A DNA stretch of 64,000 nt from Macrostomum lignano. Taxonomy: Eukaryota. The notes beneath the pieces are model-generated. The model worked only from the letters and a program-made list of their open reading frames with translations. It was not told the origin of the DNA and ran no database searches. Positions 1 through 28,911 of this stretch are shown piece after piece. Numbering within the stretch: the stretch's first letter is position 1; every line of letters starts with the position of its first letter. The stretch spans positions 62,001-126,000 of the forward strand of contig NIVC01000157.1 of NCBI GenBank assembly GCA_002269645.1. The letters are read 5' to 3'. Both the position numbers and the translations under genes were made by a program.

Positions 1-1552
1 TCTACGGCGGCCGCGTAGAGTGCTTTATCCCGCATGCTGTGGCCAGCGAGACTGAGACTCTCAAATATCGGGATGTGGTGAGTAGTGATACTACTAATAT
101 AGTAGAATATTTTGCAAAAAAATACAGTTTATGAAAAAATAATGCTTTATTTCAACTGGCAGGTCTCTCTGTACCCGACGGTGCAGTCGAAAGACCCGTA
201 CCCGATTGGCCACCCGGTGCAACATCCGACGCCGCAAGTGCTAGATTCTGACGCGCTGGCTAGTTACTTTGGTATTGCCAAGGTGACTGTGTTGCCGCCG
301 TCAAATTTGCACATTCCGCTGCTGCCGTACAGAGTGCAAAAGAAGCTCTTTTTTGGGCTTTGCCGCACCTGTATGGAGCAGCAGTGCGGCGAGTGCTGCG
401 ACCACTCAGACGAGCAGCGGGCACTGACTGGTACCTGGGCCACGCCAGAGCTGCGGAAGGCCTTCCAGTTGGGCTACCGGCTGCAGGTGGTGCACGCGCT
501 GGCCTACTGGACAGAGCAGCGGACGGGCCTGTTCGGTGACTATGTCAGCACCTTCCTCAAGCTGAAGGCCGAATCGAGCGGCTCCCCTGGCATGTCGGAT
601 GAGGACAAGGCCGCCTACATTGCCGATTTCTTTGCAAAGGAGGGCGTCACGCTGGACAAGGTCGAGCCCAACCCAGGACTTCGCTTTGTAGCGAAAATCT
701 TTTTGAATTCGTAAGTATTCATAAATTTTGTTTTTTAAATGATTTTCTTCTACTATCAGTAGCACTTCCTTTCACAACACACAGGCTCTGGGGCAAATTT
801 TGTCAGCGTGACGACCTGACATCGACCGAAATAGTATCCAGCTACGAGGACTGGCTCGCCCGGCTGACCGACCCCAACCTCAAAGTCAAGGCCTGCGAAC
901 CGGTTGGCAGCGAGTTTATGCTGCTAGAGTACCGGCACCGCTATTTTAATCAGCGGCCGTTCCGGTACTCCAACGTACCGATCGGGGTCTTTACGACCAC
1001 GCAGGCCCGGCTGCGCCTGTACGAGGCATTGGAGGGGCTCGGCGAACGGGCCATTTACTGCGGCACTGACTCGTAAGTATTGCATTGGGAAAATTCTTTT
1101 AGAATTGATTACATGTAAATTAGCAAGTTGGCAATTATCTCGTTTTCTCTCCCCCACACAGGGTCGTTTACCGGCATTCCGAGGGCCAATGGGAGCCGCC
1201 CCATGGCACGAGCCTCGGAATGTGGACCGATGAGGTGCCCGCAGGCAGCCGGATGACCGACTTTGTAAGTGGGGGGCCCAAGCTCTACACTTACATTGTC
1301 GAGGATGCGGCCGGTGTCCGGAGTCAGGTCCTGAAGTGCAAGGGCATCCGCCTGACTCCAGAGATTCGGGAGCGCAGCGATGAATTGCGCAGTGCCCTAC
1401 TACACGGCGGCTCCCTGCAGCTGCCGCAGCTTCAGTTTAGGCGCGACAAGGCGTCTTGTACCATACACACTGTTAGTATGGACAAGACGTTTCAGCGCGT
1501 CCTGACGAAGCGCGTGTACGGGGCCTGCAGCAGGCCTTATGGTTATAAATAA
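1..1552 (+). pseudogene. polB: Protein-primed family B DNA polymerase (Polinton/adintovirus-like), copy A, last four exons
   Basis: Splicing introns 78-162, 711-784 and 1073-1161 (all GT-AG) restores YRDV|VSLYP (motif A), KIFLNS|LWGKF (motif B) and YCGTDS|VVY (motif C, with D>G at the first Asp). It ends RPYGYK* at 1552. The 5' part runs off the window. Confidence 0.93.
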
Positions 1553-1913
1553 TGTGGCCCTTGCTTAATAAATATCTTGTTAAATTTGACTGAGTAAAAT
1601 CTATTTATTGTTGTACATATTTTGCATGTTAAATTAATGAAGAGTTACATACTACTATACAAATGTACATAAAGCATTTTTGTATTGTATGCAGCGAAAT
1701 TGCCAATGTAAAAATCTATTGTACATATTTTGCGTGTCAAACTTGTTTAAAATCATTTATGAAAAGAAAATTAATGAAAAACAATTTAAAATTTTCTGTA
1801 TATTCTATTTGCTGGTAATGCTGTACATAAATTATTTCCTGTAATATGCTACTGATTTAATGTAAATATATCTTCATTGTAAATACTTATACATGATGTA
1901 CGCTACACGGTTA

Positions 1914-2414
1914 GTTGACTCATTTGGTAGTAGATGAGATTAGTAATTCTCGCCTCTGCGTACATGTAGTATTGTACATGTAATTTTGGTGCGCGCGCGC
2001 TGGGGATGACACTGTAGATTAATGCACATGTACATATAGAATTGGGGATAGACAATTTGGGATAGGGATTAATGTACATGGAATTAATGTACAATTTGAG
2101 ATAGATAGGGATTAATGTACATGGAATTAATGTACAATTTGAGATATTTAGGGATTAATGTACATGGAATTAATGTACAATTTGAGATATTTAGGGATTA
2201 ATGTACATGGAATTAATGTACAATTTGAGATATTTAGGGATTAATGTACATGGAATTTTTAATATGATCACATGGATTATTACAACTACATATTGAATCA
2301 CGCTTAGGATAGCGTTTTTGTATACTACTTACTTCATTTTTCAGATAGTAGTATAATTTGCGTTTTTTGCGTCAAAACATCTGAAAATCAACACTTATCT
2401 GCACATTACGTAGT
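1914..2414. repeat. Terminal inverted repeat / end of the element downstream of pol copy A
   Basis: Shares sequence from GTTGACTCATTTGG to ...ACATTACGTAGT with 13816-14209 and 14678-15045. Similarity stops at the same base in all three. Confidence 0.8.
2065..2256. repeat. 43-bp tandem repeat, about 4.5 copies
   Basis: Unit GGGATTAATGTACATGGAATTAATGTACAATTTGAGATATTTA starts at 2065, 2108, 2151, 2194 and 2237, with no spacers. Confidence 0.95.
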
Positions 2415-2509
2415 ATGGTGGGAAAAGTTTTCCTCTATAATGCATTGAAATTTTGAATCAGCAATTAGTTGCAAAATGAAAAGTTTTAGGATAAAATGCA
2501 ATTATTTAC

Positions 2510-3033
2510 CATGTCCAAGTCGGCTCGCGGCGCCATTGCCGCAAAAATTCTTGGTATGCGGCCTCTTCGTTGTCAGCAGCGACAGCAGCAGCCTCCCCAC
2601 TAGCAGCAACCGCACTATGCAGCCCCATCCGAGGGGCTAAATTAATACCTAAGCGGCTGCTCTTTTTTTTCGGCTTCATGCTGCTGCTGTTGCTGCGGCT
2701 GCTGTTGATGTGACTGCTGCTACTGCTGCTGCTGCTGTGATTGCTGCTGCTGCTGATTTCAGAGCCAGAGGGTTGATGTCTCGTGGCCTGACGGTCGTTG
2801 CTGCTGCTGCTGCTGTCGCTGTCGTTGCTGCCAGATTTGTTTGACAGGTTTAAAACCGGTCGGGTGATATAACGATGTGACAGGTTCCGACCTACTCGGC
2901 CACCCCCAACCCCGCACCATAGGATTGAAGGGGTTTTGCCGCAACGCAGGGCTGCCGCCACCGCAACTAACTGCGGCGGCTCGTCTTCAACACTGATGCT
3001 ACTGCTGCTGCTGTTGATGCGGTCGCTGTTCAT
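2510..3033 (-). pseudogene. Orphan gene Y (Ser-rich), exon 1, left inverted-repeat arm
   Basis: MNSDRINSSSS...EEAAYQEFLRQWRREP, with a GT donor at 2509. A 1-nt deletion relative to the 23 kb copy shifts the frame just before the donor, and exon 2 is absent. Confidence 0.65.
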
Positions 3034-3429
3034 GGTAATCAAGTTTAGGCGAGTAGGCGAGTAGATGTGTTTGATCACAAATTTTCAGTCTCGCAGGGGT
3101 CTCGTTTTTATAGTGATTTTGTGAGGCCTCCCATTGGCTCCGCCAGCCTGCAAGCAAGCAGGCAAGCAAGTCTGCCCAAACCCCAGCCCAGCCCCACCAG
3201 CGAGTTAGTCAGTCTGACTCAACAACAGCAATATCTGTTTTAATAATAAAATTTCAAAGTCTCGGTTATTTTCAATTTCAAAATAAATGAAATAAGACCA
3301 TTTTTAATTCCAGAGATGTTATTTGTCAATTCCAGTTTATTCAAAAAAATGGTTTTCACATTATTAGAGTTGATATATAATCGCAGAAACACAAATTCCC
3401 ACAAGTAAAAATTATACAATTGAGAGTTA

Positions 3430-3690
3430 ATCAGCATCAACATCAAAGGCCCGGCCAAAATTTAAAGCAACAAGTGTTGAATATGTGGTATCGTTCACCG
3501 ATACCACTGATATTCGCGCCACGTTTGGTGGCATAATTTCTGTGCTTTGCGCCGACCTACACGCAAACGATTTTGTTTCGGCCAAGTTGACTGGCGACAA
3601 CATGATGCTTGCCATCAATGTCCCGCCGGTCCGCGCCGCCCGCTTCACTGCAGAGTTGATATTCAAGCACATTAACAAGGTTCTACACAT
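3430..3690 (+). pseudogene. polB: pPolB exon-3 fragment inside the inverted-repeat arm (mirror copy about 8165-8425 on -)
   Basis: VSFTDTTDIRATFGGIISVLCADLHANDFVSAKLTGDNMMLAINVPPVRAARFTAELIFKHINKVL matches the N-terminal exon of copies B, D and E. Confidence 0.85.
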
Positions 3691-3897
3691 GTCAAAGTTA
3701 TTATACAAACCATATATTCCCACAAAAGCAATGATTATACAACCCCCACATTATGAATATGAATATTCCCACACAAAAAGCATACAGCAGACACAAAAGA
3801 GTTTTTTTAGCAATTGTTTTAATCATTTTCACTCGACACGCATTGTGGCCTTGTCACTGCAGATTAGCTTAAATCGCTTGTTCTGCTCCTTGATCAC

Positions 3898-6443
3898 TTC
3901 CCAAATGACACAAACACTGTAATTATGCCGCTCCAACTCGCGAGTGAACCACTCGGTCTCGTGGCGAATGTGGCTCAGAGGCTGCCGTTTGAGCGGGTGG
4001 ACGACATCCTGATCGGGCATACACTGCTCGCAGCCATGGTAGAAACAACCATGAAACTGCAAGACAGTGTTGCTAGTCTCATCAAAGCCGTCCACCTTGC
4101 GGCCGAGAATGACCGCCTCGCCGCCATTCGAGTCGCAGGTGCGCAGCCGCCCGCCAAATTCGGTGGCATTCAAATAGGCCAGCCACTTGCGCGCCTTGAA
4201 TGACTGCTGGTCGGCCTGCCGGGCAATCACGCCGACCGAGTTGGGCTCCATGAATTTAGTAGTAAACACGGCCATTGCTAAACTGGCAATCGTATTGGCC
4301 TGAACAAACGGTTCCAGGCCGTCGCAAATGTCGCCAATTATCGACCTGTACTTGATGCAGCCCTCGCGAAGCAGGACTGTGTCACTCAAACAATAATCGA
4401 GATACTCCCGATTAAAGTTGAACAACTCGCCCTGTCGCGAGGCCAGCCAAGCACAGACGGAGTCGTAGTCATTGTTTGCCTTGCCGCCATAATATTCAAT
4501 AGCCGGGTAGGGGCCCACGTAGTTCCAATTAGCAGGCTTGTTGAACTCGTGGGGAAAGATCCCCCTGGCCAGCTTTGTGTCAGCGAGCCCCAGCGCTTTG
4601 GGGGATTGCGCAAGCGGGATTGGTATAAAGTTTAACGAATCTTTAAATACCAATTTATCAACAGTCATGCTCATTAGCCGGCTGCCCTGGAACAGTACTT
4701 GGGGCCGCTTCTTGGCCAGGCCGATGAGCAGAGCGCCAAGCAGTAGAAACGCATCATAGCCTGATGCATTGTGCGCGACAACAATGGCGCCGCCACGGAA
4801 AGTGGTGCTCAGCCAGGCGAAAAACGCATTCAGCGAGGCCGGGCCCACAGCCACAAAATCGGCCATTTGGCAGGCGCAGTCTGAGTGGCTGACGCAATTG
4901 GAGAATTCCTTCCCCAGATCGCGGTCAGTCAGACAGTTGGCGGCGCTATGCAGGCCATTGCAGAGGCGGCAAGTCTCGCGAGGAAACGACCGGCCAGAGC
5001 AGGTCTCGCAGCACGTGACGGCAGTCACCAGATGCACGTGATGCTGCTTCTCCTCGTCTGTGTACGTTTCCGTATCGTAGAACACGTACGGCATAGTTGA
5101 AGCTTTCACTTTGGGAGCCTTGACGAAACACAAATGCGAGCCGGCCTCGTCGTACTGTTTACACAGTGGGCACTTGACATGCCCGCACTTGTGTTCCGGC
5201 TCCTTTTGCCCGACTTTTAGCTCCTCCTGATAACCGCAATTAGCGCATACACGGACAGAGTCGCAGCGCGAACGGCCGGCCCGGTTTTTCTGGCGGTGAT
5301 TATTAAAGCACTGCGGATTGTAACATTTTAACCCGCAGTCTGGGCATCGCTTATAGTCACACCGCAGGCTCTTGCAATTGGCGCCGGGCGCTTTGCATTG
5401 AGGGCAGGTGTTGGCGCACTTGTGCCCTCCAGACACGCAGTCGTACGGCTGCTGGCAGCGGTCACAATAGCGGCGGGCTCCGAAAAATGGCGGCACCTTG
5501 CACACCGCGTTAAAGTGCTCGCCAATTAGGTGCAAATTCAGCACTGTGCTGCCTGGTAGGGCATACACGCATGTATTGCCCTCCTCTGCGCTGTACACAC
5601 GAACGCCTAAATCTCGGCCGGGCGACTGGGCGTTCAGAACAGCCAGCAGTTGGGGGAGCACATCAACCCCGAAAGGCCCGGCCTGTGCAATGGTTGATAA
5701 AGACTAAAACATTTGTATATTAATAAAAATGTAAATTAAAATGTGCAAAATTATTTTTTACTTACCGAATACAATTTGGCGGCAATCTGAAGTTCCTCAG
5801 TCAGCTTCGTCTGCAGTGGGGAGTCGGCCTTGATTGTTTGCCACGTATGCTAAGTGATGGCCTTGGCCAGCATGTCCGCGAAAGCCTTGGCGACAATCAG
5901 CGCTCGAATTAAACAGCGCTTATCGCGGTTGGCGATGACGACGTAGCTGTTGCCCATAGCATGCCTGGCCTGGATGTGGCGCTCCATAACAAAAACAAAA
6001 CAAAAACAAAAAACAAAAACAATTTAAAGTTGTTGCCCAAGACGCTGGAGTCCGACTGCAGCACCTTGTTTATATGCTTGAAAACAAGCTCTGCAGTGAA
6101 GCGGCTGAGGCGGACTGGCGGCACGTTAATAGTGAGTAGCATATTATCGGCGGTCAGCTTGGCTGCGACGAAATCGTTAGCGTGCAAGTCACTGCAGAGT
6201 GCCGAAATTATATCCGCAAACGTGGCGCGAATATCGGTAGTATTTGTGAAGGCTACTTCATACTCACACTCTTTTGCCTTAAATTTTGGCAATGCCTTTG
6301 CCCCGCCCAGGCGTGCAATGAAGCCTGAAAAATGGAGGGTTTGAAATTAGAATTGCGAGTGAATGACTCATGAAATAAAATCAACTCCTTACCATCGCCT
6401 TCAACAGTGTCGGGCTGGGGCGGGGGTTGAAATTGAGCCAAAT
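3898..6443 (-). pseudogene. polB: pPolB copy B (micro-exon 2, exon 3 and most of exon 4; 3'-truncated)
   Basis: Micro-exon 6443-6393, intron 6392-6325, exon to 5766, intron 5765-5683. Then Cys-rich region, ExoI YDTETY, ExoII HNASGYD and ExoIII YCLSD. Broken at VIWE (3898). Exon 3 has a deletion replaced by (TTTTG)n. Confidence 0.9.
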
Positions 6444-7424
6444 CTGCAATAAAAATGCGCATGGTGACTAAAATTCTGACCGCTTGGAATTTTACAACTG
6501 TCAAAAAGTTTTGATTGATTGCCTGCAGCAGCAGCAATTTTATCGCCCCCACCCCAAGCAACAAAAATCGGCGAGTTGTAAAAACCCCAACTCGGCACGT
6601 TCCGACACGTAGCAACAAAAGAAATGTGGGGTTGATTGACCCCGCTTCGAATTTTAGGCTGTCAAAAATGTTTGATTGATGACCCTGATAACACAGATCC
6701 TGCCGCAGCAGCCATTGTAAAATTTAAGAAAACCCCTATCAGCACGTGCCTCCATTGTGTCTCCTTGACACCTAGCAACAATACCGCGCGGCCGCTTTTG
6801 GATTTTTAAAGCTGTCTGATTAATAACCCTCACTGTAGCAGCCATTGCTGCTAACACCCCTACTGTCAATTGCAGCGGTGATTACATCATCATGTCCAAA
6901 AATCGGGGGGTTGATTTTATCACTGCCGCCTGCCCGCCCCCCGCTGAGTCTCGCGCGCGCCGCAGGATTGCTGTTTTTGCTTCTCTCTAGTTCAAGGATT
7001 AGTCACATAACCCCTGAAATTTTATGAATATCCTCTACAGGCATTATCTGGCTATACTGCTGCTGCTGCTGCGGATATTCTCTAAAACTCTGTTATTTCA
7101 ACAGGCCTGAATTTGAGAAATCCAACTTCAACATCTATGTCAAGAGGAAATTCAGAAATTGATGAATGCTATTGAATTGATGAATTGATGAAGTCAAAAT
7201 GAATGCTAAAGATGAAAAGCAGCTGTAGTTTCAAAGAAAGCCCATATTTCAAAAAGCGTGAAGTTTGCAAATCACACTAATGCTAAAGCTAAAAAGCGCA
7301 GTTATACAACCATATTTTTCTAATTTTAGATTTTGCAAATGCTAAAAATGAAAATAATTGAGGCTAATGACTAAAAAGCAGTTTTTCAAAGAGTCCTATT
7401 ATAATATTGAGTCTCTGCACGTCC

Positions 7425-8026
7425 TCGACTCTCGTCATAAGCGGTTTCAACTGGGTGAGAGCGGCCGCAAGATTCTGGAAGTGAAAAACAGCCAGATTTG
7501 GCTGCATCGCATCAACCCGGCCGGCTGCGATGAGGGCGAGCGTTGGAAATATTACATCAAGTTCACCCCTGAATTGTGGACTGCTCTGATGGATGCTGAC
7601 GTTGATTCACTGTTTGCCTCGCAGTCGCCGCCGCCGCCACCCAAGACGGCCTCGGAGCCATCATCGCGGTTCAACAGCTGCAGCAGCAGCAATGATGGTG
7701 ACGGCAATGGCAACCGCCGCCGCAGTGCTGGCACCCCGCCACCGATTGAGCTGCAGCCGCAGGTGAAGAAGCTTTCAACGACTGACGGCGGCAGAGGCAG
7801 CGGCAGCGGCAGCAGCAGCTACAAGTGGTGGCACTCGTATCCTCCGGACTCGACTGAGCTCGAGAGCTGGGCTGCTGGCCTGACTGATGAACAGCTTTTC
7901 AAGATCCCGGCCCATCAGATTGGGCCCCACGAGCCGGCCTTTGCTGCTTGGGCTGCTGTGATCAAGGAGCAGAACAAGCGATTTAAGCTAATCTGCAGTG
8001 ACAAGGCCACAATGCGTGTCGAGTGA
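7425..8026 (+). pseudogene. 5'-truncated copy of the PC4-like gene
   Basis: From about LDSRHKRFQLGE onward it matches 25641-26432. The N-terminal PC4-like domain and promoter are deleted, and it is joined to pol intron-1 sequence. Confidence 0.8.
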
Positions 8027-8716
8027 AAATGATTAAAACAATTGCTAAAAAAACTCTTTTGTGTCTGCTGTATGCTTTTTGTGTGGGAATATTCATATTC
8101 ATAATGTGGGGGTTGTATAATCATTGCTTTTGTGGGAATATATGGTTTGTATAATAACTTTGACATGTGTAGAACCTTGTTAATGTGCTTGAATATCAAC
8201 TCTGCAGTGAAGCGGGCGGCGCGGACCGGCGGGACATTGATGGCAAGCATCATGTTGTCGCCAGTCAACTTGGCCGAAACAAAATCGTTTGCGTGTAGGT
8301 CGGCGCAAAGCACAGAAATTATGCCACCAAACGTGGCGCGAATATCAGTGGTATCGGTGAACGATACCACATATTCAACACTTGTTGCTTTAAATTTTGG
8401 CCGGGCCTTTGATGTTGATGCTGATTAACTCTCAATTGTATAATTTTTACTTGTGGGAATTTGTGTTTCTGCGATTATATATCAACTCTAATAATGTGAA
8501 AACCATTTTTTTGAATAAACTGGAATTGACAAATAACATCTCTGGAATTAAAAATAGTCTTATTTCATTTATTTTGAAATTGAAAATAACCGAGACTTTG
8601 AAATTTTATTATTAAAACAGATATTGCTGTTGTTGAGTCAGACTGACTAACTCGCTGGTGGGGCTGGGCTGGGGTTTGGGCAGACTTGCTTGCCTGCTTG
8701 CTTGCAGGCTGGCGGA

Positions 8717-8750
8717 GCCAATGGGAGGCCTCACAAAATCACTATAAAAA
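8717..8750 (+). promoter_or_regulatory. CCAAT box and TATA box of gene Y (mirror copy about 3105-3138)
   Basis: GAGCCAATGGG followed by CACTATAAAAA about 70 nt upstream of ATG 8822. Confidence 0.6.
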
Positions 8751-8821
8751 CGAGACCCCTGCGAGACTGAAAATTTGTGATCAAACACATCTACTCGCCT
8801 ACTCGCCTAAACTTGATTACC

Positions 8822-9349
8822 ATGAACAGCGACCGCATCAACAGCAGCAGCAGTAGCATCAGTGTTGAAGACGAGCCGCCGCAGTTAGTTGCGGTGGCGG
8901 CAGCCCTGCGTTGCGGCAAAACCCCTTCAATCCTATGGTGCGGGGTTGGGGGTGGCCGAGTAGGTCGGAACCTGTCACATCGTTATATCACCCGACCGGT
9001 TTTAAACCTGTCAAACAAATCTGGCAGCAACGACAGCGACAGCAGCAGCAGCAGCAACGACCGTCAGGCCACGAGACATCAACCCTCTGGCTCTGAAATC
9101 AGCAGCAGCAGCAATCACAGCAGCAGCAGCAGTAGCAGCAGTCACATCAACAGCAGCCGCAGCAACAGCAGCAGCATGAAGCCGAAAAAAAAGAGCAGCC
9201 GCTTAGGTATTAATTTAGCCCCTCGGATGGGGCTGCATAGTGCGGTTGCTGCTAGTGGGGAGGCTGCTGCTGTCGCTGCTGACAACGAAGAGGCCGCATA
9301 CCAAGAATTTTTGCGGCAATGGCGCCGCGAGCCGACTTGGACATGGTAA
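8822..9349 (+). pseudogene. Orphan gene Y exon 1, right arm
   Basis: Identical translation to the 3033-2510 copy. Confidence 0.65.
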
Positions 9350-9355
9350 ATAATT

Positions 9356-12300: not shown

Positions 12301-13392
12301 GCAAAAGGCCTTCCAGTTGGGCTACCGACTGCAGGCGGTACACGCGCTGGCCTACTGGACAGAGAAGCGGACCGGTCTGTTTGGTGATTATGTAAACGCC
12401 TTCCTCAAGCTGAAGGCCGAATCGAGCGGCTCCCCCGGCATGTCGGATGAAGACAAGGCCGCCTATATTGCCGATTTCTTTGCAAAGGAGGGCGTCACGC
12501 TGGACAAGGTCGAGCCCAACCCAGGACTTCGCTTTGTAGCGAAAATCTTTTTGAATTCGTAAGTATTCATAAATTTTGTTTTTTAAATGATTTTCTTCTT
12601 CTAACAGTAGCTTTTATTTTCACTACACAGGCTCTTGGGTAAATTTTGTCAGCGTGACGACCTGACATCGACTGAGATTGTGTCCAGCTACGAGGACTGG
12701 CTCGCCCGGCTGACCGACCCCAACCTCAAGGTCAAGGCCTGCGAACCGATTGGCAGCGAGTTTATGCTGCTAGAGTACCGGCACCGCTACTTTAATCAGC
12801 GGCCATTCAGGTACTCTAATGTGCCAATCGGGGTTTTTACAACCACGCAGGCCCGGCTGCGCCTGTACGAGGCCTTGGAGGGGCTCGGCGAACGGGCCAT
12901 TTACTGCGACACTGACTCGTAAGTATTGCATTGGAAAAATTCTTTTAGAATTGATTACATGTAAATAGTTAGCAATTATCTCGTTTTTCTCTCCCACACA
13001 GGGTCGTTTACCGGCATTCCGAGGGCCAATGGGAGCCGCCCCATGGCACGAGCCTCGGAATGTGGACCGATGAGGTGCCCGCAGGCAGCCGGATGACCGA
13101 CTTTGTAAGTGGGGGGCCCAAGCTCTACACTTACATTGTCGAGGATGCGGCCGGAGTCCAGAGCCAGGTCTTGAAATGCAAGGGCATCCGCCTGACTCCG
13201 GAGATTCGGGAACGCAGTGACGACTTGCGCAATGCCCTGCTACACGGCGGCTCCCTGAAACTGCCGCAGTTTCAGTTCAGGCGCTACAAGGCGTCTTGTA
13301 CCATACACACGATCAATATGGACAAGACGTTTCAGCGCGTCCTGACAAAACGGGTGTACGGGGCTGGCAGCAGGCCTTATGGCTATAAATAA
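9356..13392 (+). pseudogene. polB: pPolB copy C (most complete copy: exons 3-7)
   Basis: Introns 9905-9987, 11933-12013, 12559-12630 and 12919-13001. All exonuclease and polymerase motifs are present (YCDTDS intact). Lesions: internal deletion and frameshift in exon 3 (about 9530-9580), a short deletion/frameshift at about 11790, and W>L in motif B (NSLLGKF). Confidence 0.93.
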
Positions 13393-14452: not shown

Positions 14453-14677
14453 GTCTCAACTTGCTGTTGTCTCCCTACTGTTTTTGCTCTCTTTTTCAAT
14501 TATTTAAATGAAAATATACGCTTTTCCAATGTGAAAACTATATGAATACAGTCTTTTTCAATAGAATCTTGATTTGTAACTCTACTAAAGGTAGTAGTGT
14601 AATCAGCTACATGTAGGTTTTGAATAATTGACATATAAATAGGAATATGTATATAACGTGGTTTGTAAAACTTGAAT

Positions 14678-19600: not shown

Positions 19601-21835
19601 CTGCGGTGATTGTCAAAGCACTGCTGATTGTAGCACTTGAGGCCGCAGTCAGCGATGCGCTTATAGTCGCACAGGCTTTTACAATTGTAGCCGGGCACTT
19701 TGCACTGATAACAGAGGTTGGCACACTTGTGCTCAGCGCAGAGATGCAATCGTACGGCTGCTGGCAGCTGTCACAGTGGCGGCGGGCTCCGAAAAATGGC
19801 GGCACTTTGCACACAGTGTTAAAGTGCTCGCCAATTAGGTGCACATTCAGCACTGTGCTGTCTGGTAGGGCATACACACATGTATTGCCCTCCTCGGCAG
19901 TATACACACGAACGCCGAAATCCCGGCCTGGCCACTGGGCGTTCAGGACAGCCAGCAGTTGGGGGAGCACGTCAACCCCGAAAGGCCCGGCCTATGCAAT
20001 GGTTGATAAAGACTAAAACATTTGTATATTAATATAAATGCAAATTAAAATGTGCAAGAACATTTTTACTCTTCGAATACAATTTGGCAGCAATTTGTAG
20101 CTTCCCAGTCAGCTTCTTCTGCAGTGGGGAATCCGCCTTGATGGTTTGCCACGTATTCTTAGTAATGGCCTTGGCCTGCAGATCCGCGTATGCCTTGGCC
20201 TCCACAAGTGCCCGGATTAAACAGCGCTTGTCGCGGTTAGCGATGACCACGTAGTTATACCCCATAGCATGCCTGGCCTTGATGTGTTTCTCCTTAACAT
20301 CCAGGCTGCCGCAGCCGCCCCGCGGGACCCAGGCCTTGAGCAAAAACAATTTAAAGTTTTTGCCCAAGACACTGGAGTTCGACTGCAGAACCTTGTTTAT
20401 ATGTTTAAATATTAACTCTGCAGTGAAGCGGCTGCGGCGGACTGGCGGCACGTTAATAGTGAGTAGCATATTATCGGCGGTCAGCTTGGCCGAGACGAAA
20501 TCGTTAGCGTTCATATCCGCACAGAGCGCAGAAATGATGTTCTCAAATGTGGTTCGAATATCGGTAGTATCGGCGAACGATACCACATATTCAAAACCTG
20601 CGGCTTTAAATTTAGGCAGGGCTTTCGCTCCGCCAAGGTACGCAATAAAGCCAGAAAAATTTGAGGGTTTGAAATTAGAATTGCGAGAGGCGGCGGGTGA
20701 ATGACTCATGAAATAAAATCAACTCCTTACCATCGCCTTCGACAGTGTCGGGCTGGGGCGGGGGTTAAAATTGAGCCAAATCTGCAATAAAAATGCGCAT
20801 GGTGACTAAAATTCTGACCGCTTCGAATTTTTAAAACTGTCAAAAACTTAATTGATTGCCCTGCTGCAGCAGCAATTTTATCGCCCCACGCCCAAGCAAC
20901 AAAAATCGGCGAGTTGTAAAAACCCCAACTCGGCACGTTCCGACACGTAGCAACAAAAGAAATATGGGGTGGATTGAACCCACTTCGAATTTTAGGCTGT
21001 CAAAAATGTTTGATTGATGACCCTTGATAACACTGATCCTGTCGCAGCAGAGATTGTAACATTTAAGAAACCCCCCTATCAGCACGTGTCTCCATTGTGC
21101 CTCCTTGACACCTAGCAACAATACCGCGCGGCCGCTAAAGCTGTCATAAATGTCTGATTAATAACCTTACCTGTAGCAGCCAAGTTTTATTGCTGCCAAA
21201 ACCCCTACAATTGCAGCGGTGATTACATCATCATGATCAAAAAAATTTTGGGGTTGATTTTATCACTGCCACCTGCCCACCCGCTGAGTCACGTTCGCGC
21301 GCGCGCGCTCGCCACAGAATTGCTGTTTTTGCTTCTCTAGTACAAGGATTAGTCATATAGCCCCCTGAAATTTTATGGCTATCCTCTACACACATTATTC
21401 GGCTATACTGCTGCTGCGGATATTCTCTAAAACTCTGTTATTTCATTAGGCAATTAAGAAATCCGAAAACAGTTTCCTCCCTTTACTTCAACATCTATGG
21501 CAGGAGGACAGCCTGACTTCAGAAATTTTAAGCCAAAATGAATGCTAAAGCTGTAAAGCAATTACAGAAATTTTAAGCCAAAATGAATATTAAAGATGAA
21601 AAGCAGCTGTGGTTTCAAAGAAAGCCCATATTTCAACAAGCGTGAGTTTGCAAATCACACAAATGCTAAAGCTGAAAAGCGCAATTATACAGCCCTATTT
21701 TTCTGATTTTAGATTTTGCAAATGCTAAAGATGAAAAGCATAGTTTTACGTGCGCGCAGAGACTCACCTAGCTGTCGTCCCCTCTTTGCGGCCGGAGGCT
21801 GATGCTGCTGCTGCTGCTGCTGCTGCCTGTACTCT
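16607..21835 (-). pseudogene. polB: pPolB copy E (end of exon 1 through exon 7)
   Basis: Exon-1 remnant RQQQQQQQHQPPAAKRGRQL with donor at 21767, intron 1 21767-20782, micro-exon 20781-20731 and motif-A intron 18059-17979. Lesions: intron-2 acceptor CAG>CTG, intron-3 donor lost, 17-nt deletion at about 18990 and further frameshifts. Confidence 0.9.
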
Positions 21836-22238
21836 GGATACATACTTCTACATGTGCATTATTCCACTTCTACATGTACAGTGTCATACATTAATCCCAA
21901 GACGGCCCACGCGCGCCCTGTATATGAATCACCAAGATTACGTGTACAACTCGAAACCCTACTACACGTACAGTTGTACAATCTCATCTACTACTGCCAA
22001 ATGAGTCAACACCCAAGTTTACAAAGCACGTTATATGCACATTACCATTTATATGTCAATTATTCAAAACCTACATGTAGCTGATTACACTATATACTAC
22101 CTTTAGTAGAGTTACGAGTCAAGATTCTATTGAAAAAGATTGTATTCATATAGTTTTCAAATTTGAAAAGTGTATATTTTTTCATTTTAATAGTTGAAAC
22201 AGAGAGCAAAAACAGCAGGGGCAACAGCAAGTTGAGAC

Positions 22239-22702
22239 TTAATTATAGCCTGTACTACCAAACCCCCTACACCGCGAATTGAGTGGCTGCTACTGGAAGT
22301 AACCTCCCCTTCGCCATTTCCCCTATAGAGATCCTTTACAACTACGGGAGCAATCATTACACGCTCCAAAACTAATTAGGCGATACGGTAGCCCCGAGTT
22401 ATGAACCAGTCCGCACTGCCATGATTAAATATCACCACAGTCAATTCCCCAGTATAGTCAGGGTCAATCACGCCGGCGCCCACTTGTATAGACTTGCGCA
22501 ACGCCAGTCCAGACCGGCCGGCAATCCGAGCGTAGGTCCCATCAGGCGGTTGGATTGAAATTCCGAGAGGCACCTGCGCAACAGACCCGGCCCGGACAAC
22601 AGCATCCTCAGAGGCAAAGAGATCGTAACCAACAGAGCCGATCGTCTGGCGAGCCGGCGGGCAGGCGCCTTCAGTCAGCAGCGACACCTTTAAAGCAGCC
22701 AT
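22239..22702 (-). pseudogene. dut: dUTPase (full length, disabled)
   Basis: MAALKV... with motifs GYDL, GRSGLA, GVIDPDYTGE and RIA*L (CAA>TAA at 22376-22378), plus a 1-nt deletion in motif 5 relative to the 14.2 kb copy. Confidence 0.93.
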
Positions 22703-23060
22703 GATGACGTAGCTGGAATTGGTGAGTTCGCGGTTATAATCAGTCACAGTGTTTACACACACAGAATGTTTTATAGTTTTTTTCATTCATTCTAAATATC
22801 ATTACTTGAAAAATGGTAAAAATCTCAACACAGTATTCAAATTTTACAAAACAATTTCTTTGAAACTAATGAGCGAGGTGCATTTGGATAACGCATGTGT
22901 GCATACACAACATTTAATACTATAGCGAGTTGAGATATATAGTATGGAGTGCATGAAAATTTAGATTGAGTGCAGACACGACACTTGATAAAAACAAGAT
23001 ATGTACAAGGTGCATGAAAATAAAAATGTGTGCAGACACAACATTAAATTGTCAATAATA

Positions 23061-23719
23061 TTAACAAAGCCCCGAGCCGGGGAATAGTCTGTCTAAGTCT
23101 TCAGCGACCTCCCCATGGAGGTCAGCCTCATATTCGGCCCTCTCCCTTTTCGCGGTGTAATAAGCCCGCTCCTCAGAGGGGCTTCCAAAACAATAGTCCG
23201 CTAGCTAGGAAAAAAAGAAAATGGGTGGAAAAGTTTTCCGATATAATGCATTGAAATTTTGAGTCGGCAATTAGTTTTTAGTTGCAAAATGAAAAGTTTT
23301 CGAGTAAAATGCATTCATAGTCAAATCTGCAATTATTTACCATGTCCAAGTCTGGCTCGCGACACCAACGCCGCAAAAATTCTTGGTAGGCGGCCTCTTC
23401 GTCAGCTGCGGCAGCCGCCTTTCCACTAGCAGCAGCGTCAGTACTGTGCAACTGCAGCCCCATCCGAGGGGCTAAATTAATCCCCAATCGGCAGCGGCTC
23501 GTCTTCTTCTTCTTCATTTGCGGTTGTTGTTGCCGCGGATGCTGATTCAGACTGCTGCCTTCAATAGTCGCGGCGGCGGCGGCGGTGGCGACTGCGGCAT
23601 ATTCACAGAGGCTGGCCCCCAGCAGCCCACAGCCATTACCAGGCTGGCAACATTCGTTGCCGCAGTAGCTACCGCCGCACCAACCTAGAAAGTCGTCAAT
23701 GCTGCTGCTGTCGCCACTG

Positions 23720-23751
<32 letters not shown>

Positions 23752-23967
23752 GTTGCCGCTACTACTGTTGCTGCCGTTGTTGTCAGATTTGTTCGACAGA
23801 GTTAAAACTGGTTAGGCAGTAGAGCGAGGCGGGTTCCAGCCTACTCGGCCGCCCCCAACCCCGCACTACATGATTAAAGGGGTTCTGCCGCCGCAAGGTA
23901 GCGCTACCGCCACCGCAACTAACTGTGGCGGCTCTTCTTCTTTTACACTGCTGCTGCTTCTGTTCAT
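23061..23967 (-). pseudogene. Orphan gene Y with terminal intron (23340-23205) and 47-aa exon 2
   Basis: ...EEAAYQEFLRRWCREPDLDM|LADYCFGSPSEERAYYTAKRERAEYEADLHGEVAEDLDRLFPGSGLC*. The GT...polypyrimidine-TAG junction is in phase 0; exon 1 has stops or frameshifts. Confidence 0.65.
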
Positions 23968-24355
23968 TGTGCTCGTGGGTGTGGGAGTTGATCGCAAATT
24001 TTCAATTTGAAAAGATTTTTAGTCGCGCAGGGGTCCCTCTTTTAAAGTGATTTTGAGTGGCCTCCTATTGGCTCCCCCGGCCTCACAGCCCCCGCCAGCC
24101 AGTCAGTCTGCCGGCCGGCCTGCCCACAGCCAGCGAGTTAGTCAGTCTGGCTCAAAAACAGCGAGCTAATAACTATCTGTTTTAATAATAAATTTCAGTC
24201 TCAAAATTTCAGAGACTCAGTTGCTTTCAATTTCAAAACAAATGAAATAAGACCATTTTTATTCCAGATATGTCATTATCAGTGCCAGTTTATTAAAAAG
24301 ATGGTTTCACTTTCATATTATTAGAGTCGATGTAATTGCAGAAACGCAAATTCCC

Positions 24356-25470
24356 AGCAGCGGACTGGGCTGTTCGTTGATTATGTGAACACCTTCTGTT
24401 GTACTCGCGGGCTGCGATCTCGTCTAGCCCGGTCGTTTCGTTTTCCCCGGGTAGCGGGTTCGGTGCGGGACTGCCCCGGGCGCGCGGCGGAGGGATGGAC
24501 AGAAGGCGAACGACTGGCGCTCCTCGAGGCGGATGGCCACTCCGAGGGGAAGAGGGAGAGATGCGACCCGGGGCGCACAGGCACTCCTCGGTCACGGAAG
24601 GCTCGGGGTACTGCCGCGGTCAGCGGAGCGGATAGCCACTCAGTGCCGGCCCGGGAGTCACCGAGGAGATTGTGAAACGAGGTGAATGTGAAGGATTGGC
24701 CGGGGCGTACAGACACTCCGGACCAATCAAGAGATACGAGGTGATGGATTAGCTGGGGCGTACAGACACTCCAAGCCAATCGGAGAGCGCAGGTGAGCAA
24801 GGGGGTGAGTAGGTGAAGCGATGAGGCGGCGAGGATGGAGAGAAGACACGTGCAGAGAGCCCAAAAAAACGCGAACGCAACCCGAATAAACGTAATTTAA
24901 GCTCACCGGGCGGGGTCAAACCGACTCATGCAACGCAGTTTATTTGGCCGTAGTAACTGTTCTGGCAGCTCGGAGACGGCGGGTGGCACGGATTAGCTTG
25001 CTACGAAGTGTTCCGATAGTTTACTGGGCTCGTGCAGTTTTGTACTTTTATGATATTTTTCTTACTCAGTTGCTGGTGTAGCTCTAACCGCAAAAACCAA
25101 GCAGCGTGCCACCGGCCGGCTCCAAGCCAGCTAATAAATAGTATGCGAAAATGGGGGAGTGGGCCAAACCGGCCTGAGCGCAAATACTCACACAACAGAA
25201 CCCCGCGAGCACCCCACCCTAGCCCAGCCAATCAAAACATGCGCTGGGTAAGGCTTTACGAACGAGGGGGGTAGAAAAGCGAGGGTCTGCCGGCCCAGCC
25301 AGCCAATCAGAGCACACGCCGGCTGCCTAAAACCAAAGCCGGCTGAACCAACTCAAACCAGCTAGGCCGGCAGACCGGGCGGTTCGCATGCACCAAAAAA
25401 AACAAGTTGATGAGAAGGTCATTGTGGCGCAGGCCACAACACTTCCTCAAGCTGAAAGCCGAATCGAGCT
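24356..25470 (+). pseudogene. polB: About 70-bp pPolB filler fragment (QRTGLFVDYVNTF|LKLKAES) split by a solo LTR
   Basis: 24356-24396 and 25442-25470 join into contiguous exon-5 sequence. Confidence 0.8.
24397..25441. mobile_element. Solo LTR (1045 bp), Gypsy-like by target duplication length
   Basis: Termini TGTTGT...ACAACA with 4-bp target site duplication CTTC (24393-24396 and 25442-25445). Internal CCAAT-like and AATAAA motifs; no coding signature. Confidence 0.85.
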
Positions 25471-25640
25471 CAAATAATCCCCACAAAAAGCAATGATTAT
25501 ACAACCCACACAAAAGAGTTTTTTATCAATTGTCTTAATCATTATCATTGAGCAAAAGGCTACGAATATGAATACTCCCACAAAAGCAATGATTTTACAG
25601 CCCACACAAAAGAGTTTTTTAGCAATTGTCTTAATCATTT

Positions 25641-26432
25641 TCACCCGACACGCATTGTGGGCAGCTGCTGCAGTTTGGCCTTGTCGCTGCTGTAGATTAG
25701 CTTAATTCGCTTGTTCTGCTCCTTGATCACAGCGGCCCAGGCAGCAAAGGCCGGCTCGTGGGGCCCAATCTGATGGGCCGGGGTCTTGAAAAGCTCTTCA
25801 TCAGTCAGGCCGGCAACCCAGCTCTCGAGCTCAGTCGAGTCCGGGGGATACGAGTGCCACCACTTGTAGCTGCTGCCGCTGCCGCTGCCTCTGCCGCCGT
25901 CAGTCGTAGAAAGCTTCTTCACCTGCGGCTGCAGTTCAATCGGTGGCGGGGTGCCAGCACTGCGGCGGCGGTTGCCATCGCCGTCACCATCATTGCTGCT
26001 GCTGCCGCTGTTAAACCACGATGATGGCTCCGAAGCCGTCTTGGGCGGCGGCGACTGCGAGGCAAACCGCGAGTCAACGTCAGCATCCATCAGAGCAGTC
26101 CACAATTCGGGGGTGAACCTGATTGAGTATTTCCAGCGCTCGCGCTCATTGCAGCCTCCGTTGGAGTCGGCAGGGTTGTTGCGATGTAGCCAAACCTGGT
26201 TATTTTTCACTCCCAGAATCTTGCGGCCCTCACCCAGTTGAAACTTATGACGAGAGCAGTCGAGCATTCCCCGAGACTCAATAATCGGCCGAGCCCTCTT
26301 GAGATGCTGCCACTCGATGCGAGTCAGAAACACGCCGGGGAAGCCGTGCTTGTAGTTGCCGTTCTTGTCAGTGTAGAAACGCCGAATCTCAATCAGTTCT
26401 CGATCAGTATCGAATGTGGGCTTGCGCACCAT
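25641..26432 (-). CDS. PC4/Sub1-like ssDNA-binding protein (263 aa, apparently intact)
   Basis: LIEIRRFYTDKNGNYKHGFPGVFLTRIEWQHLK resembles the PC4 core ([28 protein letters not shown]). A second, weaker repeat is WKYSIRFTPELWTALM. TATA box at 26551-26560. Confidence 0.65.
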   Translation of the reverse strand: MVRKPTFDTDRELIEIRRFYTDKNGNYKHGFPGVFLTRIEWQHLKRARPIIESRGMLDCSRHKFQLGEGRKILGVKNNQVWLHRNNPADSNGGCNERERWKYSIRFTPELWTALMDADVDSRFASQSPPPKTASEPSSWFNSGSSSNDGDGDGNRRRSAGTPPPIELQPQVKKLSTTDGGRGSGSGSSYKWWHSYPPDSTELESWVAGLTDEELFKTPAHQIGPHEPAFAAWAAVIKEQNKRIKLIYSSDKAKLQQLPTMRVG

Positions 26433-26550
26433 AATTGTCAACAAGTGGAATAGACATTTTGACAGAGTTTCACGGAGATAGAGCTGTTGCAAAGAGTGTC
26501 GGAGCGAGCGAGCGCGAGAGAATTCTGAAAAATCTCTCAGCAGCATGGTC

Positions 26551-26833
26551 GTTTATATACCCGCGAAAGCGACTGTACTCTGAGGAGATGAGGCTGCGGT
26601 CTGCATTTTTCGTTCCTACAGCACTACCGGTTGGTTAGATACACTCAGATCCAATTAAAATCCGTATGAGAACGAAAATGATGGGGTATTTTCAGACTTG
26701 ATCTTTTCTATACCAAGTTGCGGTCTGAGTGTACAATTGTACACTAATTTGCAAATGCAGTACAAGGGAAAGAGAAATAATGCACACGCGCTCTCTGCTT
26801 TTGCAGCATCCCCTTCCTGCAGGGGTATTTAAA
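26551..26833. promoter_or_regulatory. Bidirectional promoter: PC4 TATA (-, 26551-26560) and pol TATA-like TATTTAAA (+, 26826-26833)
   Basis: Two outward-facing TATA motifs lie between divergent ATGs at 26432 (-) and 26927 (+). The same layout recurs at about 53037-53300. Confidence 0.6.
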
Positions 26834-26926
26834 GGAAATTGTAGGAGCATCACCAGTCACAGCCGCTTCCGCAGCATCAGCAGCATCAGCCACAATCGCA
26901 GCAGCATCAGCAGCAGCAGCAGAAGC

Positions 26927-27613
26927 ATGGCATCGAAGCGTTCAGCTGCTGAAGCCGCCATTTCAGCCTTGTGGGGGCAGGCCGGCCCATCCAGGCAGCA
27001 GCAGCAGCAGCAGCAGCAGTCACGGGGTATCAGCCTCAGGTCGAGACCAGCCTCTACGCCGATGACAGCGCCCTGCTGGCCCTGGACCGCAAGCTAGACA
27101 ACTGCGCGAGCAAACTCCAACCGGCTCTCGACGCGGTCCAACGTTGGTGCGAGCGCTGGAAAATGCTGCTGAGCCCAGGCAAATGCAGCTACAGCACCTT
27201 CAGCCTCAGCCCAGCGGAAAATAGAGGCAAGGCTCGGCTCAATGTCAGCATCGGCAACAAACAACTGGCCTTTGAGCCCCACCCAGTCTTCCTTGGGGTG
27301 AAACTCGACGATCACCTCGGCTTCGCCGAACACGCCTAAGACATTCGCCGCCGCATGGCCGCCCGCAGACGACCCCTTCAGGCCATTGCTCACCGCCAAC
27401 TGGGCGCAACTCAAGACATCCTTCGAGCGGTCTACACCGCCACCGTGCGCTCAGTGGCCGACTACGGCAGCGGAATCTGGCTGGCGGGAGCAGCCCCGAG
27501 CACCCGACTCATGATTGAACGACAACGAACGGCGCCGGTAATGCGAGCGCTGAAGTAGAAGAAGAAGAAGCAGCAGTCACAGCCTCCGGCCGCAAAGAGG
27601 GGACGACAGCTAG
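26927..27613 (+). pseudogene. polB: pPolB exon 1 (poly-Q plus basic NLS-like motif), interrupted by a LINE fragment
   Basis: MASKRSAAEAAISALWGQAGPSRQQQQQQQQ...QPPAAKRGRQL, then G|GTGAGT at 27614. The phase-1 donor matches the phase-1 micro-exon acceptor. Confidence 0.7.
27038..27530 (+). mobile_element. Internal fragment of a non-LTR retrotransposon reverse transcriptase
   Basis: YADD at 27055-27066, followed by RWCERWKM...PGK...FLGVKLDDHLGF and the downstream thumb/tether-like region. One in-frame stop; no 3' tail. Confidence 0.88.
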
Positions 27614-28210
27614 GTGAGTCTCTGCGCGCGTAAAACTATGCTTTTCATCTTTAGCATTAGCAAAATCTAAAATCAGAAAAATAAGGCTGTATAATTGCGC
27701 CTTTCAGTTTTAGCATTTGTGTGATTTGTAAACTTAACGCTTATTGAAGTATGGGCTTTCTTTAAAACCACTGCTTTTCATCTTTAAAATTCATTTTGGC
27801 TCAAATTTTGGCTTAACATTTGTGTAATTGCTTTTTAGCTTTAGCATTTGTGTGATTTGCAAACTCACGCTTGTTGAAATATGGGTTTTCTTTGAAACCA
27901 CAGCTGCTTTTCATCTTTAGCATTCATTTTGGCTTAAAATTTCTGAAGTCAGGCTGTCCTCCTCCTGCCATAGATGTTGAAGTAAAGGGAGGAAACTGTT
28001 TTTGGATTTCTCAATTCAGGCCTAATGAAATAACAGAGTTTTAGAGAATATCCGCAGCAGCAGTATAGCCGGATAATGTGTGTAGAGGATAGTCATAAAA
28101 TTTCAGGGAGCTATATGACTAATCTTTGAACTAGAGAAGCAAAAACAGCAATCCTGTGGCGCGAACGTGACTCAGCGGGGCGGGCAGGCGGCAGTGATAA
28201 AATCAACCCC

Positions 28211-28911
28211 CTGGGCAACGCCGGAGCTGCGAAGGCGTTACAGTTGGGCTACCGCCTGCAGGCGGTGCACGCGCTGACCTACTGGACAGAGCAGCGGACT
28301 GGCCTGTTCAGAGATTATGTCAGTACATTTCTCAAGCTGAAGGCTGAATCGAGCGGCATGACTGACAAGGACAAGGCAGCCTACATTGCCGATTTTTACG
28401 CAAAGGAGGGCGTCACGCTGGACAAGGTCGAGTCCAACCCAGGACTTCGCTTTGTAGCGAAAATCTTTTTGAATTCGTAAGTATTCATGAATTGTTTTTT
28501 AAACGATTTCTTCTACTATCAGTAGCTTTTCTTTTCACAACACAGGCTCTGGCGTAAATTTTGTCAGCGCGATGACCTCACATCGACCGATATTGTGTCC
28601 AGCTACGAGGACTGGCTCGCCCGGCTGACCGACCCCAACCTCAAAGTCAAGGCCTGCGAACCGATTGGCAGCGAGTTCATGCTGCTGGAGTACCGGCACC
28701 GCTACTTTAATCAGCGGCTGTTCCGCTACTCGAACGTGCCAATCGGTGTTTTTACGACCACGCAGGCCCGGCTGCGCCTGTACGAGGCATTGGAGGGGCT
28801 TGGCGAACGGGCCATTTACTGCGGCACTGACTCGTAAGTATTGCATTGGGAAAATTCTTTTAGAATTGATTACATGTAAATAGTTAGCAATTATCCTTTT
28901 TCTCTCCCCCA
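28211..28911 (+). pseudogene. polB: pPolB copy F (exons 5-6), joined to intron 1 by internal deletion
   Basis: WATPEL...KIFLNS|LWRKF...YCGTDS. Truncated in the motif-C intron. Confidence 0.9.

Follow-up and report, generated by a model that had tools for sequence, protein, structure and literature searches.

The first 28,911 positions of the analyzed window, a stretch of 64,000 nucleotides from contig NIVC01000157.1 of Macrostomum lignano, are nested, broken copies of a roughly 10-kb virus-derived mobile element. We consider it likely that this element is a Polinton-derived satellite, autonomous for replication and dependent for integration; it is probably inserted by the integrase of complete Polinton viruses that share its genome and, if so, would be the parasite of a parasite. 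A natural copy running from one terminal inverted repeat (TIR) to the other was found at G000:C1263. It is about 10.44 kb long and is arranged as TIR, pol (-), PC4 (+), a pol N-terminal fragment, Y (+), dUTPase (+), and TIR, with two ends that are 91.9% alike over 370 bp. The original prediction had pieced together this gene order and a unit of ~10.3 kb with the shared end sequences as TIRs, and both are present in this copy. From positions 1 to 28,911 of the window, 26,530 bases align to it in 18 pieces at 72 to 91% identity. Exon 1 of its pol is split over two frames, so the copies read are at most candidates for active elements.

The window may be a place where element copies became inserted one into another before undergoing rearrangement. 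Its features are as follows.

1-2414, plus strand: pol-side end of a complete insertion of about 9.86 kb (G000:C157:54556-64414), with the last pol exons, stop at 1552, and a TIR ending ...TACGTAGT at 2414.
2415-2420, plus strand: 6-bp target duplication ATGGTG, a hexamer that also stands before the left end of that insertion.
2500-3897, minus strand: Y with TATA promoter, pol N-terminal fragment, and PC4 3' end, a 99.93% inverted duplicate of 7958-9355.
3899-7354, minus strand: truncated pol copy with a partial large exon, the terminal-protein exon (stops inside), the 51-nt exon 0b, and partial intron 0.
7403-9355, plus strand: 5'-truncated PC4 (stop 8026), pol N-terminal fragment (8168-8411, antisense), and Y (8822-9349).
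9357-14209, plus strand: pol copy with a deletion in the terminal-protein exon, four GT-AG introns (62, 81, 72, and 83 nt), and a TIR to terminal base 14209.
14210-15045, plus strand: dUTPase 3' half (stop 14452) and TIR to terminal base 15045.
15046-16606, plus strand: end of pol intron 0, exon 0b (52 nt here, out of frame), terminal-protein exon, and start of the large exon.
16613-21829, minus strand: broken pol copy that starts at the end of exon 0 (donor after 21768) and extends almost to the stop.
21849-23434, minus strand: dUTPase (start 22702, premature stop 22376-22378) and inner TIR, with the outer TIR missing.
23278-24356, minus strand: diverged Y gene and promoter.
24357-25471, no strand: short pol fragment split by a solo-LTR-like insertion (24397-25441, 1,045 bp, TG...CA, 4-bp duplication CTTC), as read from sequence.
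25641-26458, minus strand: PC4 gene, with a tandem PC4/PUR fold and disordered tail.
26552-26835, no strand: putative bidirectional promoter with two back-to-back TATA boxes.
26927-27613, plus strand: pol exon 0 (MASKR...), split by a LINE reverse-transcriptase fragment at 27020-27556 (RVT_1, E 1e-4); donor GTGAGT at 27614.
27614-28912, plus strand: partial intron 0 fused to a fragment from the middle of pol, where the array ends.
31163-32526, plus strand: right end of a canonical capsid-bearing Polinton, Cap-432, ending ...TTCTACT.
40063-42403, minus strand: second Cap-432 remnant, with right end, minor capsid, major capsid 3' end, and PLA2 piece.
48101-55736, no strand: rearranged family 3 copy (pol 63% identical, PC4, TIR remnant) and an extra orphan open reading frame (ORF).

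The upstream part of the insertion ending at 2414 contains PC4 and pol matches, and the insertion struck a second family member in the interval separating dUTPase from Y. At three places in the window (2414, 14209, and 15045) an end copy finishes at the identical base; for two of the three, 14209 and 15045, no left end bearing the expected duplication was found, and a full Russian-doll nesting was rejected. A general preference for insertion into relatives is not claimed: of 21 end flanks, just 4 are element sequence, of which two lie in the window and the other two probably represent one locus. Some readings in the original prediction had to be revised. The AT-rich "promoter" upstream of pol is its first intron, the promoter being the short stretch at about 26552-26835; PC4 and Y, described as adjacent in "family 2," are separated by the pol fragment with the 1,045-bp insertion; and "families 1 and 2" are 85 to 91% alike variants of one family, the distinct one being that at 48 to 56 kb. 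The introns, target duplications, reversed end motif, pol-plus-PC4 and pol-only versions, palindromes, and complete Polintons described below go beyond it.

Element units with TIRs and 5'-ACTAC ends (versus the canonical AGTAG) span 8.5 to 10.8 kb, with a TIR of 370 bp in type A and at least 1.25 kb in family 3. The 5' end motif is ACTACGTA, ACTACATA, or ACTACTA in 14 of 14 end pairs, and the canonical Polinton 5'-(AG)3 or (AGT)2 is absent from them. A 24-nt motif just inside the end has 178 matches in the genome (90 forward and 88 reverse, the best 100 being listed), against 0 for a reversed-pattern control. Lengths cluster, with 14 of 32 end pairs at 9.07 to 9.90 kb. The copies form a series of four genes, pol plus PC4, pol alone, and no gene, and dUTPase and Y are optional. 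Family 3, with 63% polymerase identity and a size of 8.5 to 8.8 kb, has only pol and PC4; all five of its exact-end pairs measure 8.45 to 8.84 kb and contain pol and PC4 matches.

The polymerase gene has at least 78 matches in the genome and matches Pfam PF03175. Its predicted product is an animal-Polinton-type protein-primed DNA polymerase (pPolB) with terminal protein, vOTU protease, Zn-rich region, exonuclease, VSR-like nuclease, and palm, the terminal protein being assigned by position and fold pattern rather than by direct structural match. The vOTU Cys/His (C232/H318), exonuclease, VSR-region, and palm residues are invariant in 66 homologues, and a fold search with the predicted model returned phi29 polymerase and adintovirus pPolB as first matches; exonuclease motifs are present in pol and no helicase domain was found there. 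The gene begins with the exon MASKR... at 26927, which is basic and NLS-like. Six GT-AG introns are predicted at the same positions in both families, whose polymerases are 63 to 66% identical; no intron-type joint was seen among the 15 listed of 54 (four runs, assembled contigs). Named homologues, at about 33 to 38% identity, come from Nematostella, Branchiostoma, Apostichopus, Ischnura, Nymphon, and Paramacrobiotus. In a FastTree phylogeny of 68 rows, the four element polymerases form one clade (100) on a long stem that falls within an 11-row set including Nematostella; the tree has no plasmid or adenovirus outgroup.

PC4 matches PF02229 (E 1.2e-5) and is predicted to be a tandem PC4/PUR single-strand-binding fold with a disordered tail; its model aligns to Pur-alpha (Z 9.0, rmsd 4.4, 118 aligned) and to human PC4 (Z 6.4, rmsd 1.9, 66 aligned). 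No homologue was found with the long form and only Macrostomum entries with the short form, and Atlas leads, scored under 0.9, point to PC4 clusters. The dUTPase matches PF00692 (E 3.6e-25). Y had no useful Pfam family and no Atlas match, and it is most likely, on weak grounds, a small basic, disordered DNA-binding accessory protein. All four genes are under purifying selection, with within-family dN/dS estimates of 0.10 to 0.25 for pol (12 pairs), 0.18 to 0.34 for PC4 (4 pairs), 0.21 to 0.45 for Y (3 pairs), and 0.00 to 0.12 for five of six dUTPase pairs, the remaining one giving 0.74. The promoter layout, identified from sequence only, is the same in family 3.

When 11 Polinton proteins encoded in this genome were used as tblastn queries for integrase, capsid, ATPase, and protease genes (E ≤ 0.05; two integrases for the rve part), no match appeared within 1-28,911 or within any of the four element types that were read (A, B, C, and family 3), with the positive control found; tblastn and Pfam could both miss an integrase gene split among short exons. 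No integrase, capsid, or ATPase lies between PC4 and Y in any copy read, as the original prediction anticipated, and the replication-only unit that it described (pPolB, single-strand-binding protein, dUTPase, and orphan) exists as natural copies lacking integrase and capsid. A genome search with PF04665 found 0, a test that is insensitive, since two ATPases score with PF04665 directly; of 4,300 candidates in an rve genome search, 150 were scored, filled by long ORFs resembling LTR-retrotransposon pol. Three sequences searched against Rfam, the C1263 copy among them, gave no match, and no relative was found in the viral contigs searched. The copies are precisely integrated: a 6-bp target duplication (6, not 7) is exact in 13 of 14 end pairs, the 14th (C1263) sitting in a G-run on both sides, and none of 182 noncognate end pairs shares a duplication. 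A complete Polinton at C1316 likewise has a 6-bp duplication, the value given as the Maverick rule in the available text of PMC8097293.

The same ends and 6-bp duplications are found on giant noncoding palindromes, in whose 31 arm ORFs no integrase or other Pfam match was detected. Integration in trans therefore occurs in this family in any case. The end moves in noncoding derivatives, three of which nevertheless retain the dUTPase 3' end, so the idea that the shared end is an independent transposon was rejected; it is the element's own TIR. Within elements, palindrome arms are 99.9 to 100% alike in seven of eight cases, and between elements most are 88 to 97% alike (one pair, 99.9%). Derivatives without any genes may replicate as half molecules that fold back with a hairpin end, and may then integrate in the form of palindromic dimers. 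A possible but less favored account, for the palindromes only, is that one ancient fold-back event was followed by gene conversion that kept the arms alike after insertion. The common center of palindromes C657, C600, and C1485 is consistent with this, as are the eighth element, with arms only 97.7% alike, and the deeper parts of three elements, at 92 to 94%. However, arms are near identical despite a 3- to 10-kb spacer or inserted DNA (C126 and C600), and the center forms an imperfect hairpin whose loop is 3 nt long (-45.9 kcal/mol; its z of -8.3 is what any palindrome center would be expected to give). If arms are reset at each insertion by hairpin replication, the palindromes would record an intermediate of Polinton-type DNA replication never observed directly.

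Complete Polintons with AGTAG ends, which encode integrase and capsids themselves, are abundant in the genome. All 121 integrase matches that were scored (of 1,725 candidates) are 90 to 100% copies of the Cap-432 integrase, most without stops, and Cap-432 carries its own pPolB. Because 5'-AGTAG ends are found in both complete families read, neither stands out as a cognate helper; both end types finish T-A-x-T-3' (GTAGT versus CTACT), and one integrase could accept both. Other, intronless pPolB families exist in the genome beyond these two. A split Polinton with Cap-463 as a polymerase-less partner is a candidate reading that was not supported: no pPolB occurs in the 9.6 kb read, which excludes a further 8 kb, but its ends are AGTAG, and its end pairs (17.8, 17.8, 18.2, 18.2, 19.2, and 22 kb, with two shorter at 5.7 and 13.9 kb) are mostly long enough to hold a polymerase as well. 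For the satellite, we propose that host Pol II would transcribe pol and PC4 from the bidirectional promoter and splice pol; a released copy would then undergo protein-primed, strand-displacement replication starting at its ends, in which PC4 would cover the displaced strand and dUTPase would prevent uracil incorporation; and the linear product would be inserted by the rve integrase of a complete Polinton. Target duplications on gene-less and integrase-less copies are direct genomic evidence of a Polinton-type integrase acting in trans, apparently on a noncanonical end. We suggest only tentatively that these are hyperparasites: nuclear, intron-bearing Polinton satellites with their own protein-primed polymerase that use helper integrase and capsid, are held by packaging near half the helper genome size, and spawn hairpin-ended noncoding palindrome parasites. 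If so, this way of life is old enough for the lineage to have diverged into families with 63% polymerase identity.

It is unlikely that the copies are ordinary deletion derivatives of an autonomous ACTAC-ended Polinton with the same pol plus integrase and capsids. Nonautonomous derivatives are common among DNA transposons (available text of PMC6431247), only the best 100 of 178 end matches were listed, and four ACTAC pairs of 16 to 24 kb left unread (C200, 18 kb; C1001, 24 kb; C106, 21 kb; C2693, 17 kb) could be autonomous masters. However, among the matches listed, no pol (of at least 78), capsid, or integrase match falls inside these four, and the long pairs that were read (C126, C600, and C1485) owe their length to inserts. 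Two families 63% apart also miss the same modules and have six introns in common, and selection on pol continued while copies diverged to dS of 0.2 to 0.3. Still less probable is a self-integrating polymerase, in which the VSR-like nuclease of pPolB (or Y) would cut the target and the polymerase join the ends, leaving the 6-bp duplication without a helper. Family 3 has the duplication with only pol and PC4, the VSR-region residues are invariant, and the element ends differ from those of both helpers read, but 6 bp is the exact rve value and, to our knowledge, VSR enzymes make nicks at mismatches and lack strand-transfer chemistry. The pPolB2 of marine nematode and mollusc Polintons also contains VSR domains (available text of 10.1101/2023.08.22.554363). 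Finally, a helperless nuclear linear plasmid entering chromosomes only through DNA repair is very improbable, being largely refuted for integrated copies: the gene set and TIRs fit linear plasmids and the window is scrambled like a repair product, but repair would not leave 13 of 14 pairs with base-exact ends and 6-bp duplications. Of the two lifestyles offered by the original prediction, helper dependence fits, whereas a free plasmid caught by chance does not, for the same reason.

Relative to Polintons/Mavericks with group-2 pPolB and VSR (animal adintoviruses), the satellite has the same terminal protein, vOTU, VSR-like domain, TIRs, and 6-bp duplication, but it lacks rve integrase, capsids, ATPase, and protease, is 8.5 to 10.8 kb rather than 15 to 25 kb, and ends in 5'-ACTAC rather than (AG)3 or (AGT)2. 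Intact vertebrate Mavericks are described as intronless in PMC8097293, whereas the element pol has six predicted introns, whose conservation points to long residence in one host lineage. Eukaryotic linear plasmids are cytoplasmic or organellar and encode their own RNA polymerase. The fungal cytoplasmic and mitochondrial plasmids (pGKL and kalilo) likewise have pPolB fused to a terminal protein, TIRs, and no capsid; the element, in contrast, would be nuclear, as its predicted spliceosomal introns and TATA (Pol II-type) promoters suggest, has no RNA polymerase ORF in its ORF lists, and integrates precisely. Transpovirons have a pPolB-S1H fusion without exonuclease and parasitize giant viruses of protists, whereas the element has a full pPolB with exonuclease, an animal nucleus, and integration with 6-bp duplications. 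The available text of PMC11071308 derives linear plasmids from (proto)polintons by loss of the morphogenetic module, and transpovirons, which are capsid-less TIR-bounded linear elements dependent on another virus, from structural-module loss; the element is likewise capsid-less and TIR-bounded, and its dependence is inferred. This transition, deduced from trees in those cases, would here be seen in an animal nucleus with intermediates and complete Polintons together. The Lepidoptera polinton-like viruses AHEV_PLV1 and Ca_PLV1 have PolB and no detectable integrase; one is integrated, and integration in trans has been proposed (available text of PMC11296320). They were assigned divergent capsid genes, whereas type B and family 3 have no spare ORF for a capsid.

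Whole-element palindromes that fold back on themselves are found in snap-back defective genomes and palindromic linear plasmids. The palindromes described here differ in that they integrate with 6-bp duplications and form a large noncoding family.

Self-comparison showed that the first 28.9 kb of the window consist of direct and inverted pieces of a single unit, in which Pfam identified pPolB, PC4, and dUTPase; the remaining gene, Y, had no Pfam match. Genome-wide searches covered the 764-Mb assembly (the window is G000:C157:62001-126000). A natural TIR-to-TIR copy of 10.44 kb on contig C1263 accounts for 26,530 of the 28,911 bases at window positions 1 to 28,911 and has the same gene order that the original prediction had deduced. 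In this copy, a pol fragment sits between PC4 and Y; therefore, no hidden genes lie there, and the integrase, capsid, or ATPase that might have occupied that interval is absent from it. Three end copies in the window (2414, 14209, and 15045) stop at one base, as had been read for the pol-side and dUTPase-side ends. The observation is real and the element richer than described; the kilobase taken for a promoter is intron 0 of pol.

The element exists in four versions.

Versions of the element
Type A, C1263 (read) and C157 (from matches): pol, PC4, Y, and dUTPase
Type B, C1485-inner (read), 9.6 kb: pol plus a 3-kb arm without a recognizable gene
Family 3, 8.76 kb: only pol and PC4, with a TIR longer than 1.25 kb
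Type C, C657 and C2132: palindromic, noncoding or almost so

Five further contigs counted under type B (C260, C566, C1159, C1300, and C1396) have a pol match and, among the matches listed, no PC4 match. All five exact-end family-3 pairs carry both genes and measure 8.45 to 8.84 kb. C657 matches its own inverse at 99.7% along 9.1 kb, and C2132 is laid out as TIR-dUT-Y...Y-dUT-TIR. As queries, 11 proteins of complete Polintons in the same genome (integrase, capsid, ATPase, protease, and polymerase) gave no match in window 1-28,911, C1263, C1485-inner, C657, or the family-3 copy C24; these same proteins detected remnants at 40 to 42 kb of the window and a control.

The pol gene is predicted to be spliced, with six GT-AG introns. 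Four are internal, 61 to 89 nt long, and AT-rich, with lengths modulo three that differ among copies; two lie upstream, flanking a 51-nt exon. The first exon is short and basic and lies downstream of a TATA box arranged back to back with that of PC4. Family 3 has all six introns at identical positions, with a small exon of 45 nt and 63 to 66% identity to the window family in the large exon. Invariant positions in an alignment of 66 homologues comprise the Cys and His of the vOTU domain, three Asp residues of the exonuclease, the Glu/Asp/His of the VSR region, and the YxD motif. The terminal protein-vOTU-palm arrangement is that of polinton pPolBs (PMC11071308), and the VSR insert is shared with marine pPolB2 (10.1101/2023.08.22.554363). 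A structure model (pLDDT, 75.5) had its best fold matches in phi29 polymerase and an adintovirus enzyme. In a FastTree phylogeny, the only method used, the element polymerases form a single long-stemmed clade amid animal Polinton-type enzymes. Of the 20 long sequences homologous to the window polymerase, 18, at 50 to 91% identity, are entries from Macrostomum lignano or sequences near such entries (17 are so labeled); the other two show 23 to 27% identity. This flatworm is therefore the probable host.

PC4 is modeled as a single-chain double repeat resembling Pur-alpha. With a single dUTPase outlier, dN/dS is far below one in pol, PC4, Y, and dUTPase, so the lineages diverged while functional. 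A piece of about 250 bp from the pol terminal-protein exon is retained downstream of PC4 in several copies (window 3431-3700 and 8168-8411; L041:8838-9090; L023; L035), where it runs antisense to pol in PC4-direction transcripts and could exert antisense control of pol.

The end motif occurs 178 times in the genome (control, 0). All 14 left-right pairs with flanks read start with 5'-ACTAC, and 13 have an exact 6-bp target duplication, none reaching 7; the junction of the 14th sits within a G-run. No noncognate flank combination matched (0/182). Maverick duplications are likewise 6 bases, with published end motifs of (AG)3 and (AGT)2 (PMC8097293). At C157:54556-64414, an insertion flanked by the duplication ATGGTG has entered another copy between the dUTPase and Y of that copy; window 1-2414 forms the right end of this insertion. 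A search for left ends partnering 14209 and 15045 found none; these two ends are left over from nested insertions or else represent one-ended joins. Despite differing contents, 14 of the 32 pairs drawn from 100 of the end-motif matches span 9.07 to 9.90 kb, which only hints at a size limit because many pairs may descend from few masters.

None of the integrase and capsid matches listed for the genome falls within the 32 pairs. In the genome, where at least 73 capsid matches were scored, two Polinton families are candidate helpers, and further families with an intronless pPolB are present. Cap-432 (C1316; ~16.1 kb) is complete, with an integrase, its own intronless pPolB, a protease, an ATPase, and both capsids between AGTAG ends with a 6-bp duplication; its integrase is present in at least 121 copies, and two remnants lie within the window. 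Cap-463 encodes an integrase, capsid, ATPase, protease, Eco47II-like nuclease, and PLA2-integrase ORF; its AGTAG ends carry a terminal hairpin, and its pairs are mostly near 18 kb. The hairpin at its start is 99 nt long (L044:753-851; also L051 and L053), with arms AGTAGTAGT... and ...ACTACTACT, so that an ACTAC motif lies just inside the canonical end. ACTAC ends were absent from both families. Both end types terminate in T-A-x-T, a resemblance that might or might not suffice for one integrase to take both.

It seems likely to us that the element genes would be transcribed and spliced by the host, that protein-primed replication would proceed from the TIRs by strand displacement with PC4 as the single-strand binder, and that insertion would use an integrase borrowed from a Polinton. 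The element resembles Polintons in replication and integration but differs in its end motif, its pol introns, and the absence of integrase and virion genes. Its replication genes, ends, duplications, and absent genes are evident from the sequence; it is a Polinton variant and probably a satellite, for which chromosome release, free linear forms, a helper, and packaging are presumed. Capsid loss is known from transpovirons and linear plasmids (PMC11071308), integrase-less PLVs have been described in Lepidoptera (PMC11296320), and dinoflagellate polinton-like elements carry introner insertions, mostly acquired after integration (PMC11957031). Among the papers listed by full-text searches, none dealt with such elements or with Macrostomum Polintons; the family may already be named in Repbase or Dfam and could have an entry in Polinton-survey supplements.

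Over their first 1,100 bases, palindrome arms within one element are 99.9 to 100% identical in seven of eight cases (97.7% in the eighth), and different elements, one pair excepted, show 88 to 97% identity. Resetting of the arms thus roughly keeps pace with movement of the element. This would fit replication via a hairpin; gene conversion following insertion could instead have homogenized the arms.

Same-orientation right-end motifs at G000:C362:505493, 515355, and 525216, spaced 9.86 kb, are possibly a head-to-tail array of the element. Two further scrambled arrays of the same families (G000:C471 and C513; L035 and L036) share the site at which an end is fused to pol and may be copies of a single locus; arrays of this kind could be small-RNA sources. 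Polinton-type elements are also nested: Cap-432 in a type C element and beside or in Cap-463, and type B in a type C palindrome (L037:3552; L047:2571; L033:4265). Another unit has inserted into a palindromic element (L031:5248 to L032:1775) and contains a 769-aa ORF along with a gene for a CIDE-N protein (PF02017; E, 6.5e-11).

In the window, an orphan ORF has two related copies (45319-46524 and 53829-55096; 79% DNA identity in part), one of them lying in the family-3 copy, flanked by PC4 and the TIR remnant; the ORF is not in C24 and had no useful Pfam match. Fragments at 35534-36903, 47351-47821, and 57004-57752, which we take to resemble hAT-type transposases, had no Pfam match. Strongly strand-skewed simple tandem-repeat blocks lie at 29900-30900, 33990-34770, and 37770-38060. 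A family-3 end altered by one base marks a subfamily on G000:C2368, C176, C1711, C3682, C5237, C106, and C2693, with pairs of 7.7 to 21 kb and with pol and PC4 matches inside the one on C2368.
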